DNA of 4,506 nt from a virus (Duplodnaviria; Heunggongvirae; Uroviricota; Caudoviricetes), in IMG/VR virus record IMGVR_UViG_2585427793_000002, positions 1 to 4,506 of that record. The stretch is one strand, 5' to 3'. The notes under the pieces are model-generated. The model worked only from the letters and a program-made list of their open reading frames with translations. It made no database searches and had not been told where the DNA came from. Numbering within the stretch: position 1 is the first letter of the stretch; every line of letters starts with the position of its first letter. Below, piece by piece: positions 1 through 4,506 of the stretch. Both the position numbers and the translations under genes were made by a program.

Positions 1-619
1 GCCAGACCGAGCCTTCAATACGTTTGTCGCCAAGGAACGTCGGAGAGCCTTCCTGTTCAATATCCTCATCAAAGGCAGCAAGTTCATCATAACCCGCCAC
101 ATCCACCGACTTTTCACGGTAGTTTTTTGCCGCTTTACCGCCCAGGCACCAGAAGCCACGACCATTGGAAAAACGCTTCATAGTGAGCGTGTTATCCCGG
201 TGCTTTTTGCCATACCACGGAGCCAGCGCCAGCAGCGACGGAATATCGCGGATGGTCGGCTCAACGTGGGTTTTCATAAAGTTCTCGGCATCACCATCCG
301 TCGGCAACCAGATAAGGGTGTTGCGCTGCTTATGCTCTATAAAGTAGGCATAAACACCCAGCAGCATTTTGGAATAACCGACACGGGCAGACTTCACCAC
401 ATTCACCTCACGGATGTAGTCGCTGCCCATCGCATTCATGATGGCCCGCTGAAAGGGCAGTGTTTCCCAGCGCCCTTCCTGGTATGCGGATTCTTTCGGG
501 AGATAGTAATTAGCATCCGCCCATTCAACGGCGGTCTGTGGCTCCGGCCTGAACAGTGAGCGAAGCCCGGCGCGGACAAAATGCCGCAGCCTGTTAACCT
601 GACTGTTCGATATATTCAC
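1..619 (-). CDS. A: Terminase large subunit gpA, N-terminal 206 codons (rest of gene lies beyond window position 1)
   Basis: Reverse complement from the GTG at 619..617 translates to (V/M)NISNSQVNRLRHFVRAGLRSLFRPEPQTAVEWADANYYLPKESAYQEGRWETLPFQRAIMNAMGSDYIREVNVVKSARVGYSKMLLGVYAYFIEHKQRN... and leaves the window as ...FDEDIEQEGSPTFLGDKRIEGSVW, matching lambda gpA as I recall it. The GTG start lies 26 nt inside the 3' end of Nu1, as in lambda. The ORF runs off the window edge, so it is absent from the supplied ORF track. Confidence 0.93.
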   Translation of the reverse strand, partial: MNISNSQVNRLRHFVRAGLRSLFRPEPQTAVEWADANYYLPKESAYQEGRWETLPFQRAIMNAMGSDYIREVNVVKSARVGYSKMLLGVYAYFIEHKQRNTLIWLPTDGDAENFMKTHVEPTIRDIPSLLALAPWYGKKHRDNTLTMKRFSNGRGFWCLGGKAAKNYREKSVDVAGYDELAAFDEDIEQEGSPTFLGDKRIEGSVW

Positions 620-1139
620 TCAGCAACCCCGGTATCAGTTCATCCAGCGCGGCTGCTTTGTTCATGGCTTTGATGATATCCCGTTTCAGGAAATCAACAT
701 GTCGGTTTTCCAGTTCCGGAAAACGCCGCTGCACCGACAGGGGGATCCCGTCGAGAATACTGGCAATTTCACCTGCGATCCGCGACAGCACGAAAGTACA
801 GAATGCGGTTTCCACCACTTCAGCGGAGTCTCTGGCATTCTTCAGTTCCTGTGCGTCGGCCTGCGCACGCGTAAGTCGATGGCGTTCGTACTCAATAGTC
901 CCTGGCTGGAGATCTGCCTCGCTGGCCTGCCGCAGTTCTTCAACCTCCCGGCGCAGCTTTTCGTTCTCAATTTCAGCATCCCTTTCGGCATACCATTTTA
1001 TGACGGCGGCAGAGTCATAAAGCACCTCATTACCCTTGCCACCGCCTCGCAGAACGGGCATTCCCTGTTCCTGCCAGTTCTGAATGGTACGGATACTCGC
1101 ACCGAAAATGTCAGCCAGCTGCTTTTTGTTGACTTCCAT
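594..1139 (-). CDS. Nu1: Terminase small subunit gpNu1 (181 aa, complete)
   Basis: ORF-track protein MEVNKKQLADIFGASIRTIQNWQEQGMPVLRGGGKGNEV...LLSEYIEQSG is lambda Nu1 essentially residue for residue (one L->I at ...ILDGIPLSV..., from memory). ATG at 1139..1137 is preceded by the lambda-type leader GTCCGTGGAATGAACA. It lies directly downstream of cosB. Confidence 0.96.
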   Translation of the reverse strand: MEVNKKQLADIFGASIRTIQNWQEQGMPVLRGGGKGNEVLYDSAAVIKWYAERDAEIENEKLRREVEELRQASEADLQPGTIEYERHRLTRAQADAQELKNARDSAEVVETAFCTFVLSRIAGEIASILDGIPLSVQRRFPELENRHVDFLKRDIIKAMNKAAALDELIPGLLSEYIEQSG

Positions 1140-1164
1140 TGTTCATTCCACGGACAAAAACAGA

Positions 1165-1278
1165 GAAAGGAAACGACAGAGGACAAAAAGCCCGTTTTCA
1201 GCATCTGTCGTTTCCTTTCTTTTCAGGGGGTGTTTTAAATAAAAACATTAAGTTACGGCGAAGAAGAACGGAAACGCC
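1165..1278. other. cosB terminase (gpNu1) binding region: R1, R2, IHF site I1 region, R3
   Basis: Three copies of the R-element core CGTTTCC/GGAAACG: R1 1165..1180 (rc TCTGTCGTTTCCTTTC), R2 ~1205..1218 (rc AAAGGAAACGACAG), R3 1263..1278 (rc GGCGTTTCCGTTCTTC). An AT-rich block at ~1230..1258 (rc ...TAACTTAATGTTTTTATTTAAAA...) sits where lambda has the IHF site I1. Sequence and spacing follow lambda cosB as recalled, with a few SNPs and a 1-nt indel between R2 and R1. Confidence 0.8.
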
Positions 1279-1311
1279 TTAAACCGGAAAATTTTCATAA
1301 ATAGCGAAAAC

Positions 1312-1333
1312 CCGCGCGCCTTCCGCCCCGTGG
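1312..1333. other. cosN (terminase nicking site) region, variant sequence
   Basis: Placed by position next to R3. Reverse complement of 1311..1331 reads ACG GGGCGG AAGGCG CGCGGG, versus lambda ACG GGGCGG CGACCT CGCGGG (memory). The segment equivalent to the 12-nt cohesive end is 1317..1328. Actual nick positions cannot be established from sequence. Confidence 0.6.
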
Positions 1334-1682
1334 CAGGCCACCCCACCGGAAGGACCCTCACAAATGAGAGCGTTTGTCATTAACATTTACAGATAAGATG
1401 ACGTACATCATTGAAACGCCATTCAGCCATATACCGGCAGCATTCGTAGTTGCACTCCGTAACTCTGCGACTAAGGTTAAAAACATGGCCCTCTTTTGCC
1501 ACCGGCAAATCTTCAATGGATTTCCCCTGCCGGTTTTTTATTTTCGTCGATGCATAACATTGCATTTACATCAATAGCGGCTATTGTCATTAGTATGTTG
1601 CATCAATGCATGGGTGGTATTGGCGGTCTTCGCCGGCCGCTTCTGTGTAGCTGCTCCCTGTGACCGGTTTTTTATTTCTCAC

Positions 1683-1719
1683 ATTACAGCAACCCCTTAG
1701 AGTGAAGGGCTGCTGTAAT
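1683..1719. other. Stable stem-loop (about 14 bp stem, 6-nt loop) just 3' of the 131-aa gene; not a canonical terminator
   Basis: ATTACAGCAACCCCTT (1683..1698) pairs with AAGGGCTGCTGTAAT (1705..1719) with one mismatch and one bulge around loop AGAGTG. It starts 6 nt downstream of the stop at 1725..1727 on the - strand. No T/U tract follows it on either strand. Confidence 0.5.
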
Positions 1720-1724
1720 GCCTG

Positions 1725-2120
1725 TTACTCACGAATCAGGCGAGCACTCTTACTATTCATTTCAATACGCGAATACTGCGGTTTACCATCAATGATGTCT
1801 GTCATTACGAACACCTCACCCGGCTGCAGTTCAACTGCACCTTCCGGTAATTTCATACCGGCAAATACCGGACAACCCGGATGACGATCATCTTCTGTTG
1901 CTTCCAGCATTGACTCACCAAACCACTCCGTCGTGGCGCGACCATCAGCTGCTTTGTAGTGGATCAAGTACTGGTTTTCGCCATCCGCATACTGCGCGCG
2001 GGCTTTAACCTCACCCCATTCATCACTGATACGCATCTCCACCAGTTGAGACAACTCAAACTTAAACGGAGCAGCATCAGCACCAATTACAATCGGTTTG
2101 TTTTCTGTTTTTTCCATCAT
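1725..2120 (-). CDS. Hypothetical acidic protein (131 aa), function unknown
   Basis: ORF-track ORF 1725..2168 trimmed to the tandem ATG ATG at 2120..2115 (MMEKTENKPIVIG...), which is preceded by AGGAGA (rc of 2124..2129). The upstream ATG at 2168 has no Shine-Dalgarno. By my count 24 Asp+Glu versus 15 Lys+Arg; no TM segment, no signal peptide, no motif I recognise. Confidence 0.7.
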   Translation of the reverse strand: MMEKTENKPIVIGADAAPFKFELSQLVEMRISDEWGEVKARAQYADGENQYLIHYKAADGRATTEWFGESMLEATEDDRHPGCPVFAGMKLPEGAVELQPGEVFVMTDIIDGKPQYSRIEMNSKSARLIRE

Positions 2121-2291
2121 CGTCTCCTGATATCGAAGCCCGTCGCCGCACCGGGCACTGATCAACATTTGAGTATTCGCGGCGACAGAAAGAATTTATT
2201 TTATTGAGTAGCCACAAACACAGAATTTCATGCTTACCGGACGCTGGCGCATCCTTCATTTTTCAGCAAAATATTCTGCTCTTACAGGCGA

Positions 2292-2474
2292 TCAGTTCTG
2301 CAGACACTGCCGAACACCGTCGACAATTTCACAGACCTGAGACGCGGTATCGAAAAGCTGGCGCGCCTTATCCAGGCTGACGCACCCCACCAATAAAAAA
2401 GGCACCAGTATCGCTACCAGTGCCCGTTTCACCGCCGTTCGCGGCATTCTGTGTGTCCAGTGTTTTCGCGCCAT
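2292..2474 (-). CDS. Putative small lipoprotein (60-aa precursor, ~30-aa mature)
   Basis: N-terminus MARKHWTHRMPRTAVKRALVAILVPFLLVG|C has a basic n-region, hydrophobic core and lipobox L-V-G-C (Cys31). The mature part CVSLDKARQLFDTASQVCEIVDGVRQCLQN has three Cys. The ATG at 2474 is 1 nt after the stop of the upstream 37-codon ORF and preceded by GGTGGTGAT. Confidence 0.55.
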   Translation of the reverse strand: MARKHWTHRMPRTAVKRALVAILVPFLLVGCVSLDKARQLFDTASQVCEIVDGVRQCLQN

Positions 2475-2475
2475 A

Positions 2476-2589
2476 TCACCACCAACGCACAGCCCAAATC
2501 AGAACAGCGACCGCCACAAGGCGAATTGCAAAGGCCGCAGCCCTTGTCAAATCAAGGCTCGCGGGAGTTTCCATTTCAATACCTTTCAT
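2476..2589 (-). CDS. Putative 37-aa membrane mini-protein (MKGIEMETPASLDLTRAAAFAIRLVAVAVLIWAVRWW)
   Basis: Found by hand translation; below the ORF-track size cut-off. ATG at 2589..2587 with GAGG 9 nt upstream; C-terminal hydrophobic helix; TGA stop at 2478..2476 sits 1 nt before the lipoprotein ATG, suggesting translational coupling. The short length makes it uncertain. Confidence 0.3.
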   Translation of the reverse strand: MKGIEMETPASLDLTRAAAFAIRLVAVAVLIWAVRWW

Positions 2590-2671
2590 AATGGACAACC
2601 TCAAAAAGAATCTTTTATACTTTCCCACGAGGATTTTCTCCCTACTCACTAATCACAATTTCCCCTTTGAC

Positions 2672-2719
2672 GTGAAAACTAAAAACCCCGGACTGTTCCC
2701 CCAGCCGGGGTTTTGTTTT
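2672..2719. terminator. Bidirectional rho-independent terminator immediately downstream of the endolysin gene
   Basis: GC-rich inverted repeat CCCCGG...CCGGGG (2686..2710; about 9 bp stem with one bulge) flanked by AAAAA (2681..2685) on the left and TTTTGTTTT (2711..2719) on the right. On the - strand the hairpin is followed by UUUUUAGUUUU and on the + strand by UUUUGUUUU. It begins 11 nt after the endolysin stop codon. Confidence 0.72.
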
Positions 2720-2721
2720 AC

Positions 2722-3099
2722 TTATCGCTTCAGCTGAAAGTGAGGTCCGTCTTTCAGCGTTTTCCAGTCCCCGCCCCATTCGATAGCGATCCCCAGCTCT
2801 GCGGCAGCCTGCTTAAATGCCTGTGCGATTTTCTCGTACAGAGGCCACTCCCATGACACCTGACTGCCAATGTAGGCCACAACATCCACCGCATCACCGG
2901 TCAGGTGGCGGCTGTTCATGGTCTGGCTTTTCCCTTCCGCAACCAGCTGTTTCTGGCGATACTTACTGCGCAGGCCTTCCGTAATACCGAAATCAACCTC
3001 CGTCAGCTCCAGCGCACGGCGAACTACAGCAACCAGCTGTGGTTTGACACCCTCCAGATTTTTTTCACTGCGACGGCTGAATCTGAATTTACCCGGCAT
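2722..3099 (-). CDS. Endolysin, L-alanyl-D-glutamate endopeptidase (peptidase M15 family, phage T5 Lys-like)
   Basis: 125 aa from the ATG at 3099 (GAGGTG 5 nt upstream; the ORF-track start at 3105 is a GTG two codons earlier). It carries a Zn-ligand pattern typical of M15 peptidases, SRHLTGDAVD ... WGGDW ... DGPHF, and overall resembles the small T5-type endolysin as I recall it. No signal peptide or SAR domain, consistent with holin-dependent release. It is the last gene of the cassette before the terminator. Confidence 0.85.
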   Translation of the reverse strand: MPGKFRFSRRSEKNLEGVKPQLVAVVRRALELTEVDFGITEGLRSKYRQKQLVAEGKSQTMNSRHLTGDAVDVVAYIGSQVSWEWPLYEKIAQAFKQAAAELGIAIEWGGDWKTLKDGPHFQLKR

Positions 3100-3101
3100 A
3101 T

Positions 3102-3377
3102 TCACCTCAACAATGGAAAGATTTTTGTGACGTTCCCGCGTGCGCGTATCACCAGCACGCAGAACAGCAGATTAAAAAACACTTCCAGCCAGCCCGTTGC
3201 TAACGGGCGACCACACAGATAGCTGAGGGGCGCAAAGGCATACAGCAGCATCAGCAGCCAGGCCAGCCATGACACCAGCGGTTTATGTCTGGAATCACGG
3301 CGACGATAAAAAAAGAGCGTCAGCACGATAACCGTGCATAACGCCACATTCAGCAATCCGGGAAGGTTACTTAACAT
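3102..3377 (-). CDS. Small 3-TM membrane protein of the lysis cassette (putative holin or antiholin), 91 aa
   Basis: ORF-track ORF 3102..3431 trimmed to the internal ATG at 3377..3375 (MLSNLPGLLNVALCTVIVLTLFFY...), which has a strong GGAGGAGG box 5-8 nt upstream; the track start at 3431 would overlap the upstream gene by 65 nt. Three hydrophobic helices and a basic C-terminus (RARGNVTKIFPLLR). Its TGA stop (3104..3102) abuts the endolysin start. Confidence 0.6.
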   Translation of the reverse strand: MLSNLPGLLNVALCTVIVLTLFFYRRRDSRHKPLVSWLAWLLMLLYAFAPLSYLCGRPLATGWLEVFFNLLFCVLVIRARGNVTKIFPLLR

Positions 3378-3759
3378 TGCCGCCTCCTCCACCCCGCAGG
3401 CGGGAGAACACACCGGACACCAGCGATGCAATATCCTGCTGGTGGATGAACGAGAGAATCTTCACCGACACCACCGAGACCAGCACCGCGCAAAGCGCAT
3501 CTGCTGATGTACCGTCATACCCTGTTTTTGATGCAATCCAGGCTGACAGCACACGCGCTCCCAGCACGCCGACAATAAACGACACCAGAAAATGTGCCAC
3601 CACGCGCCAGACTGAAAGTGACTGTGGCATCGTTGCCACAAATAACGCCCCGGCGAACGCGCCAAACACAATCCCGAAATCCATTCCGGTAAACAGCCCG
3701 AATACCGTCGCGCCACCCAGCGCCGCAGCCGTGCCGGAACCGGATAAGGGTTCAGACAT
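3367..3759 (-). CDS. Gly/Ala-rich 4-TM membrane protein, putative holin (130 aa)
   Basis: ATG at 3759 preceded by AGGAGG (rc of 3764..3769). About four hydrophobic helices (TAAALGGATVFGLFTG, FGIVFGAFAGALFVA, VVAHFLVSFIVGVLGARVL, ALCAVLVSVVSVKILSFI) and a Gly-rich charged tail. It is the first gene of a cassette ending in an endolysin, and its 3' end overlaps the next gene by 11 nt. Holin role is inferred from context, not homology. Confidence 0.65.
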   Translation of the reverse strand: MSEPLSGSGTAAALGGATVFGLFTGMDFGIVFGAFAGALFVATMPQSLSVWRVVAHFLVSFIVGVLGARVLSAWIASKTGYDGTSADALCAVLVSVVSVKILSFIHQQDIASLVSGVFSRLRGGGGGNVK

Positions 3760-3815
3760 ACTTCCTCCTGAAAATAAAAAAGGGCCACCAGCGACCCGTA
3801 AAAAAACACCCCGTC

Positions 3816-3837
3816 AAAGGCATCCGCAGATGCCTTT
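3816..3837. other. Perfect hairpin (9-bp stem, 4-nt loop) in the spacer between the small ORF and the holin gene
   Basis: AAAGGCATC (3816..3824) - CGCA - GATGCCTTT (3829..3837). On the - strand RNA the stem is followed by GACGGGGUG and only then U7, so it is not a textbook intrinsic terminator. Confidence 0.45.
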
Positions 3838-3846
3838 TGTGTGATG

Positions 3847-3999
3847 TTATTCAGATTTACGCAGTAAAGGCCGGAGCACGACCAGCGCCATCACCACCAG
3901 CACACCATCTGCCAGCACCGACATCAGTCGTCCGGTGAAATCAACCACCACTACCAGAAACAACAGGATGACAGCCAGCACAAGGCGCGCACTTTTCAC
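3847..3999 (-). CDS. Putative 50-aa two-helix membrane protein (GTG start), translationally coupled to the TerB-like gene
   Basis: Found by hand translation; below the ORF-track size cut-off: (M)KSARLVLAVILLFLVVVVDFTGRLMSVLADGVLVVMALVVLRPLLRKSE. The GTG at 3999..3997 overlaps the upstream TGA stop (GTGA), with GGAG 8 nt upstream. Two hydrophobic helices and a charged C-terminus. No ATG start with a comparable ribosome-binding site. Confidence 0.35.
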   Translation of the reverse strand: MKSARLVLAVILLFLVVVVDFTGRLMSVLADGVLVVMALVVLRPLLRKSE

Positions 4000-4421
4000 A
4001 GGTACTGCTCCAGCGGCAACTGCAGCGCCTGCGCAATTTTCTTCAGTTGCGCTTCTTCTTCCTGAGCGATACCGTCCTGGTCAGCGATATCCAGACACAG
4101 GCACAGCACATTAACTGCATCATCAGTACCGGCAACATCAGCCAGCTGACGAAGAGCTTCGGCATTGGCAGAACGCGGCGACGCTTCATAACGGGCGCGG
4201 ATATTTGCACTCATTTGTGCAATCTCACCGGAGAACGGCGCAAAGGCAGGAAGTGCTGCAATGGTTTTTTCCAGTACCGCGATTTCTTTCGCGTCACAGG
4301 TGCCGTCAGCGTATGCAATGGAGTACGCGCCCCAGACGGTCGCCTCCACTGCGTCACGGTTCTCCATCTTCTTCACTTCGGTAATGGCCTTGCGGGTTTT
4401 CTTTTTGAAAATACCAAACAT
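3996..4421 (-). CDS. TerB-like (tellurite-resistance TerB family) helical protein, 141 aa
   Basis: ATG at 4421 with AAGGA about 9 nt upstream. The N-terminus MFGIFKKK and two 'hydrophobic-x-DG-x(3-5)-acidic' repeats (AYADGTCDAKEIAVLEK and ADQDGIAQEEEAQLKKIAQALQL) follow the pattern I recall for TerB (compare SDGNFDDDEKSAVREIARSLGF in plasmid TerB). Assignment is by pattern recognition only. Confidence 0.7.
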   Translation of the reverse strand: MFGIFKKKTRKAITEVKKMENRDAVEATVWGAYSIAYADGTCDAKEIAVLEKTIAALPAFAPFSGEIAQMSANIRARYEASPRSANAEALRQLADVAGTDDAVNVLCLCLDIADQDGIAQEEEAQLKKIAQALQLPLEQYL

Positions 4422-4506
4422 CGTGACTTTTCCTTTTAGTGGGTGAGCCTGCGCCCGGGGGTGACCAGCCCACAGAGAAAGTCACACTGACCATCCCGTA
4501 AGCTCA

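Follow-up and report, generated by a model that had tools for sequence, protein, structure and literature searches.

A probable alternative right-half cosN allele in lambda-type cos sites of Escherichia and Shigella prophages

Why should a lambda-type cos site differ from lambda at five of six consecutive bases of its cohesive-end segment when the sequence on both sides of these bases is conserved? The question is raised by a 4,506-nt stretch of viral DNA (Caudoviricetes; IMG/VR record IMGVR_UViG_2585427793_000002, positions 1 to 4,506), which we refer to in its full length as the window. A preliminary description of the window, made from the sequence alone, had noticed that the six cosB-proximal bases of the cohesive-end segment read AAGGCG instead of CGACCT and had offered three readings of this, namely altered cohesive ends, an impaired cos in a cryptic prophage, or an assembly or recombination scar. 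The lambda sequence used for that comparison proved to be right when set against NC_001416, in which bp 1-18 read GGGCGGCGACCTCGCGGG and the record ends in ...GGGTCCTTTCCGGTGATCCGACAGGTTACG. The cohesive end of lambda is GGGCGGCGACCT, and the same 12 bases are labelled 'cos site' in the DE3 lambda record. In the window, positions 1311-1331 read cccgcgcgccttccgccccgt on the + strand and ACG GGGCGG AAGGCG CGCGGG in the reverse complement.

Bp 1-189 of the window site were then globally aligned to bp 1-190 of lambda. Within the hexamer, the two sequences differ at bp 7, 8, 9, 10, and 12 (window 1322, 1321, 1320, 1319, and 1317, respectively), while C11 is unchanged, and the alignment thus agrees with the earlier observation of five differences in six bases with both flanks kept. 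Bp -3 to 6 match lambda throughout, which restricts the changes near cosN to bp 7-12, and so do the 58 bp from bp 13 to 70, a stretch that includes R3 and bears out the more than 55 nt of cosB-side identity noted previously. Outside of the hexamer, only 8 more differences were found in the remaining 178 bp of the alignment. Over 1331 bp, the DNA of the Nu1/A region has 97.8% identity with lambda, and by our own arithmetic the expectation for five changes in six adjacent bases is 6 x 0.022^5, or ~3e-8 per window position. A cluster of 5/6 changes against a background divergence of ~2% is far beyond chance. The right arm beyond cosN had been described as not lambda-like, which holds for the spacer, as only ACG and GGGCGG (9 nt) are common with lambda before it diverges, but not for the cosQ heptamer GGGTCCT, which is conserved. 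By hand count, the symmetric pairs -2:14, -1:13, and 2:11 of the 16-bp cosN are kept, two of the five symmetric base pairs of the lambda cosN (3:10 and 6:7) are lost, and one (4:9) is gained. The variant also creates an alternating GCGCGCG at window 1313-1319, a palindrome with a BssHII-type site where lambda has CCTCGCG, and this run straddles the predicted bottom-strand nick.

The arrangement of the site is otherwise that of a lambda-like cos, as cosQ, GGGCGG with its CG flanks, and R3 at the set distance are all found and are followed by Nu1 and A (Table 1). The cosN core was located by its positional correspondence to bp -2 to 14 of lambda, and the CG dinucleotides are kept on both sides of cosN, which matches the description given in PMC4669245, where cosQ is likewise reported to be highly conserved. 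From these positions, nicks are predicted at window 1329/1328 on the top strand and 1317/1316 on the bottom strand. The spacing between cosQ and cosN is 1 nt below that of lambda; in IMG/VR, cosQ-to-ACG spacings of 19 nt, as in the window, and of 20 nt are both common. Eight differences from lambda are scattered over the I1/R2/R1 region of cosB. The gpA fragment matches the Pfam family GpA_ATPase (E = 6e-32), with the window stopping before the nuclease domain. Two details of the reference emerged from the same alignments: Nu1 starts at bp 191 in NC_001416 versus bp 190 in the window, the DE3 record, and the other aligned phages, and the reference lambda cosB has one extra base at bp 137 (GCGAGGC versus GCGAGC or ACGGGC).

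Table 1. Features of the cos region and the adjoining terminase genes, in window coordinates.
Feature	Position	Strand	Remarks
cosQ heptamer GGGTCCT	1351..1357	-	packaging-termination signal; conserved, aligns with lambda GGGTCCT
cosQ-cosN spacer, 19-nt allele TCCGGTGGGGTGGCCTGCC	1332..1350	-	lambda has 20-nt TTCCGGTGATCCGACAGGTT
cosN core, 16 bp (CG flank, 12-bp cohesive-end segment, CG flank)	1315..1330	-	
Left half of cosN, GGGCGG	1323..1328	-	as in lambda
Variant hexamer AAGGCG (bp 7-12)	1317..1322	-	lambda CGACCT
cosN-to-R3 spacer, bp 15-49	1280..1314	-	lambda-identical
cosB, lambda type	1140..1279	-	alignment to lambda
R3, bp 50-65	1264-1279	-	lambda-identical; R3 coordinates from PMC9026076
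Nu1, small terminase subunit, 181 aa	594..1139	-	Pfam Phage_Nu1, E = 9e-101; lambda packaging specificity
gpA, large terminase subunit, N-terminal 206 codons	1..619	-	GTG start at 619

The distribution of the hexamer was examined with a 50-nt variant probe, which has no megablast seed on a lambda-type cos, as the longest common run is 23 nt versus the 28 required. In the complete E. coli genomes, this probe was found at 167 places in 156 of the 5426 genomes, 16 of these places being on plasmids, whereas the equivalent lambda probe was found at 8404 places in 4482 genomes. The exact flank of the window is present in 53 complete E. coli genomes, many of which are ETEC (e.g., H10407 and E24377A), and the closest relative of the window in this set is strain E200139 with 98.5% identity. 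The exact variant is also present in 77 IMG/VR contigs and on 23 non-mobilizable plasmids, mostly of 42-50 kb (range 34-92 kb), the hosts of which are E. coli, Shigella sonnei, E. albertii, and E. fergusonii. In addition, two deposited phage genomes have the allele, PhiR46_1 (PV340565) and YDC107_1, neither of which has a record that begins at cos. The plasmids and the classification of YDC107_1 as a Ravinvirus suggest N15-like phage-plasmids with a lambda-type cosB. In a scan of one genome per species, a 20-mer, which is too short a pattern for a collection of 596 Gb, gave 16 matches, and the sole genuine one was in Escherichia sp. E1V33; the other 15 are chance matches in G+C-rich genomes without cosQ and R3. 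Thus, the allele circulates among lambda-like prophages and phage-plasmids of Escherichia and Shigella. The preliminary description would have counted a wide spread of the exact variant among functional lambdoid phages against its own reading. This is partly the case, as the variant is widespread and at least one of its genomes is deposited as a propagated phage, a status that PhiR46_1 derives only from its host field ('E. coli ECOR13'). A literature search found no paper on PhiR46_1 or ECOR13 phages. Neither the 12-mer GGGCGGAAGGCG nor its complement was found as a cos sequence in the literature, where only unrelated plant and Streptomyces papers were retrieved, and the allele therefore appears to be undescribed in the searchable literature, while the phenomenon, variation of bp 7-12, has already been described.

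These results bear directly upon the possibility that the hexamer arose from an error of assembly or sequencing, or from a single recombination event that left its scar in one genome alone, for which it could be argued that the changes are clustered where the similarity to lambda ends. However, the identical hexamer recurs in hundreds of independent assemblies, including the 156 complete genomes, which come from many laboratories, as well as IMG/VR and plasmid records and the two phage genomes, and it is also found with the commonest lambda-allele-associated sequence on both of its sides. The probability of an artefact or private scar is therefore negligible, and this suggestion of the preliminary description can be set aside.

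A second possibility is that the cos site is impaired or dead and belongs to a decaying cryptic prophage, as might be supposed from the chromosome-like context of the window and from the alteration of five of six bases at the target of an enzyme. Decay is difficult to reconcile with an exact hexamer that is conserved over hundreds of loci with many different flanks and that is carried by deposited phage genomes and by replicons of phage-plasmid size. Moreover, among the IMG/VR contigs with enough downstream sequence, 41 of 44 variant loci have an intact ORF for the large terminase (600 codons or more), versus 42 of 55 loci with the lambda allele, and the fraction is thus higher beside the variant. 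The related lambda-like prophage of E200139 is complete, extending from genes for integrase and excisionase over those for immunity, replication, lysis, terminase, head, and tail to the tail fibres, without any pseudogene flags, and the head module of the H10407 prophage is likewise intact. From this, we consider a dead cos to be highly improbable, and the earlier idea of an impaired site in a cryptic prophage is not upheld.

The preliminary description had also assumed that nicking by gpA is sequence dependent, and from this assumption it would follow that the variant cosN might be cut only by a gpA with a matching, altered nuclease domain, the two having co-evolved into a new specificity class. 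The discreteness of the allele would be in keeping with such a class, as there are no intermediates between CGACCT and AAGGCG among 125 sampled lambda-cosB sites. However, in alignments of 84 gpA proteins (39 from variant and 45 from lambda-allele loci) and 146 Nu1 proteins from IMG/VR loci, no column of either protein discriminates between the alleles. The maximum frequency difference was 0.37, and the best-separating gpA column, which has this value, sits in the N-terminus. Four 641-aa gpA proteins are even 100% identical between CGACCT and AAGGCG contigs, each of them thus standing beside both alleles, and the Nu1 of the window is identical to Nu1 proteins that adjoin both alleles in IMG/VR contigs. 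Lambda and N15-hybrid terminases are similarly reported to have no cosN specificity (PMC4669245). A co-evolved terminase specificity is therefore very unlikely. As for sequence-dependent nicking, the assumption is wrong for the right half of cosN, in which bp 7-12 are largely irrelevant to cleavage on the account given in PMC4669245.

The same literature offers another view of the allele. Differences in bp 7-12 have been called 'common' and are reported to be without effect on cleavage (Feiss et al. 2015, PMC4669245); relative to lambda, they are found in N15 and phiD326 (bp 9 and 12) and in Gifsy-1 (bp 8, 9, and 11). As summarized in that paper, mutations of bp 7-12 had a minimal phenotype, whereas the symmetric changes of the left half were severe; for example, G2C lowered the yield about 10-fold, while C11G had no phenotype (Xu & Feiss 1991). 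The asymmetry of cosN is further stated there to depend upon its nearness to cosB (Hang, Catalano & Feiss 2001). On this account, gpA is brought into place for the nick on the bottom strand by Nu1 at R3, and lambda TerL cleaves the cosN of lambda and that of N15 equally well (PMC4669245). For TerL anchored at R3, the nick is assumed to lie between bp 12 and 13 (PMC9026076). All of the elements named as conserved in PMC4669245 are kept in the window and all of its changes near cosN fall within the tolerated segment, so normal nicking at the homologous positions would be expected. The published tolerance data comprise mutants with one or two changes and natural variants of 2-3 bp (PMC4669245), as compared with five of six bases in the window, and we infer that this five-change allele is cut efficiently as well.

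Accordingly worded as a sequence of events, Nu1 would bind to R3/cosB, the lambda-identical element of the window, and from R3 it would direct gpA to a bottom-strand nick between bp 12 and 13 on which the identity of bp 7-12 has little influence. The conserved left half, ACG/GGGCGG, would be recognized by a second gpA, which would nick the top strand. The predicted product has 12-nt 5' cohesive ends, GGGCGGAAGGCG, which would be complementary between the two ends of one chromosome. The G+C content of this 12-mer is 10/12, as in lambda, and its nearest-neighbour melting temperature is 46.3 versus 47.8 C for lambda; since both match, cyclisation should work normally. Altered cohesive ends are thus the most likely of the three original readings, and the predicted overhang would retain both the length and the nick positions of lambda. 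Judging from sequence comparisons, window 1315-1357 is likely to be a functional cos of the lambda type, in which the right half of cosN is represented by a natural alternative allele. The allele is real but ordinary, in that it is not a scar, an artefact, or a decayed cos and very probably not a new specificity, and it supports the notion that the bottom-strand nick is set by measurement from R3 rather than by sequence.

The preliminary description had further placed a mosaic junction inside or at cosN, and the spacer, hexamer, and cosB do indeed reassort around this site. The hexamer is unvarying across at least 25 distinct cosQ-side flanks in IMG/VR. However, one such flank, TGCGGGTCCTTTCCGGCGATCCGACAGGTTACG, is the commonest partner of the lambda allele and is only one spacer base off the reference lambda; the occurrence of the hexamer with this spacer on its left indicates that the junction did not give rise to the hexamer. 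Conversely, the 19-nt spacer of the window is paired with AAGGCG (18), CAGCGG (8), GAGCGG (2), and CGACCT (1) among the IMG/VR loci, and its association with at least four right-half alleles implies that the pieces of cos (spacer, 12-bp segment, and cosB) reassort separately. An example of this is found in ETEC H10407 (NC_017633), which has the same cosQ, spacer, and AAGGCG cosN as the window. From about bp 46 on, its cosB and the N-terminal DNA-binding domain of its Nu1 are both of another type (retrieved locus about 6045-6350 compared with window 996-1283), and a single cosN allele is thus used with at least two packaging specificities. A chromosome with ends mismatched at 2 bp remains viable, its yield being ~25% and thus reduced about 4-fold, and both alleles segregate in the progeny (PMC4669245). 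Besides recombination in the conserved flanks, such segregation of mismatched ends could swap the 12-bp segment relative to either flank.

A perfect 7-nt inverted repeat, CCTTCCG/CGGAAGG (window 1319-1325 and 1347-1353, with 21 nt between the arms), connects the variant hexamer with the 3' border of cosQ. This repeat is probably a coincidence, because it is perfect with the 19-nt spacer only. A templating or functional role of the repeat was also considered and rejected, since it leaves bp 11-12 unaccounted for and the repeat is broken in sites that carry the hexamer with 20-nt spacers. Likewise, a hand check indicated that AAGGCG is not reproduced by a simple inversion of the lambda hexamer. 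Rfam and promoter/terminator scans around cos found nothing relevant.

To place AAGGCG among other right-half sequences, IMG/VR was scanned for cosQ followed by 19-20 nt, ACGGGGCGG, six free bases, and CG, with T at bp 12 excluded. Together with the loci of the earlier scans, this identified at least 19 right-half hexamers in lambda-like cos sites. Over all retrieved loci, there were at least 78 of AAGGCG, 33 of GAGCGG, 24 of CGTCCG, 15 of CAGCGG, 8 of CAGACG, 6 of CGACCG, and 5 of CTGGCG, all of these being minimum counts that are shaped by the design of the searches and are not frequencies. When the six positions were left free next to a lambda-type cosB, the matches listed were CGACCT (115), AAGGCG (9), and CGACCG (1). 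Among the matches listed, AAGGCG is at least two steps away from all other alleles, and the others form small one-step networks. CGTCCG is the allele of N15, in the record of which it is annotated as a real sticky end.

It is conceivable that the right-half types are end-compatibility groups that are kept by selection and limit cross-packaging and recombination. This reading can draw upon the discreteness of the 19 or more alleles with their preserved G+C and melting temperature, the isolation of AAGGCG by at least two steps among the alleles listed together with its constancy over 25 flanks, and the cost that is already incurred by a 2-bp end mismatch (PMC4669245). If it were true, packaging between mixed cos sites by the same terminase, in mixed concatemers or tandem heterologous prophages, would give non-cyclisable chromosomes for the combination of CGACCT and AAGGCG (5 mismatches), there would be a partial barrier to cross-packaging or recombination in polylysogens, and exchange at the nick sites would move the 12-bp segment from flank to flank. 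However, Feiss et al. take the same pattern to mean that bp 7-12 are not under selection, invariant copies would also be expected after a recent spread by recombination, and the scans were built around chosen patterns, so that allele frequencies are not unbiased. We therefore consider compatibility groups kept by selection to be unlikely and favor a natural alternative allele in a tolerated segment.

In a sizeable minority of Escherichia lambda-like prophages, the AAGGCG allele predicts a sticky end other than the textbook one, namely at ~2% of lambda-type cos places and in 3% of complete E. coli genomes. This is relevant to cos-end prediction tools, to end-ligation and run-off assays, to the annotation of genome termini, and to the application of lambda cohesive-end oligonucleotides or cosmid logic to wild phages. 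The allele also carries the functional asymmetry of cosN from natural variants of 2-3 bp to a replacement of five of six bases beside identical terminases. It opens no new mechanism, and its value is mainly practical and to a lesser extent a support for the model of measurement from R3.

The remainder of the window concerns the lysis side of the locus. Window 1380-1724 consists of ~340 bp without a convincing ORF before cosQ. Between the lysis genes and cos, an ORF of 147 aa on the - strand (1725-2168) belongs to phrog_1935 of unknown function (E = 4e-69) and has no Pfam match. The lysis region (2292-4421, - strand) encodes a TerB-like protein (141 aa), a DUF3927 protein (50 aa), two holin-family proteins (Phage_holin_8 and Phage_holin_3_7), an M15_4 endolysin, and two small ORFs in PHROG families of unknown function. 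The lysis half of the window (about 1703-4506) is matched by PP818812.1 (Actinobacillus phage vB_Apl-pPE4) with 91% identity to 48% of the window; the Actinobacillus host label is odd for a lambdoid module of the Escherichia type.

In comparison with known systems, the lysis region of the window resembles those of phiP27 and phiSTEC1575-Stx2k rather than lambda S/R/Rz. The cos site itself has in common with lambda cosQ, ACG/GGGCGG, the CG flanks, bp 13-70, the I1/R2/R1 layout, the distance to Nu1, and a lambda-type Nu1 and gpA N-terminus, whereas it differs in bp 7, 8, 9, 10, and 12 and in having a 19-nt instead of a 20-nt spacer allele. Among the alternative alleles, GAGCGG also has 5/6 differences from lambda and is thus as divergent as AAGGCG, and sites with GAGCGG, CAGCGG, CAGACG, CTGGCG, and others have the same layout, with cosQ, ACGGGGCGG, and CG conserved. 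Unlike AAGGCG, which is the main alternative on lambda-type cosB, these other IMG/VR alleles are mostly found on non-lambda cosB. The cosN of N15 and phiD326, GGGCGGCGTCCG, is similar to that of the window in that its variation lies within bp 7-12, T12 is changed to G, and both the left half and the CG flanks are kept, but N15 differs from lambda at 2 positions as opposed to 5 for the window allele. N15 also combines a simple cosB with a TerS specificity of its own, while AAGGCG is mostly found on lambda-type cosB. Lastly, the cosN of Gifsy-1 from Salmonella, compared here by its reported positions (PMC4669245), is a natural variant of the right half only, as is the window allele, except that C11 is altered in Gifsy-1 and kept in the window.
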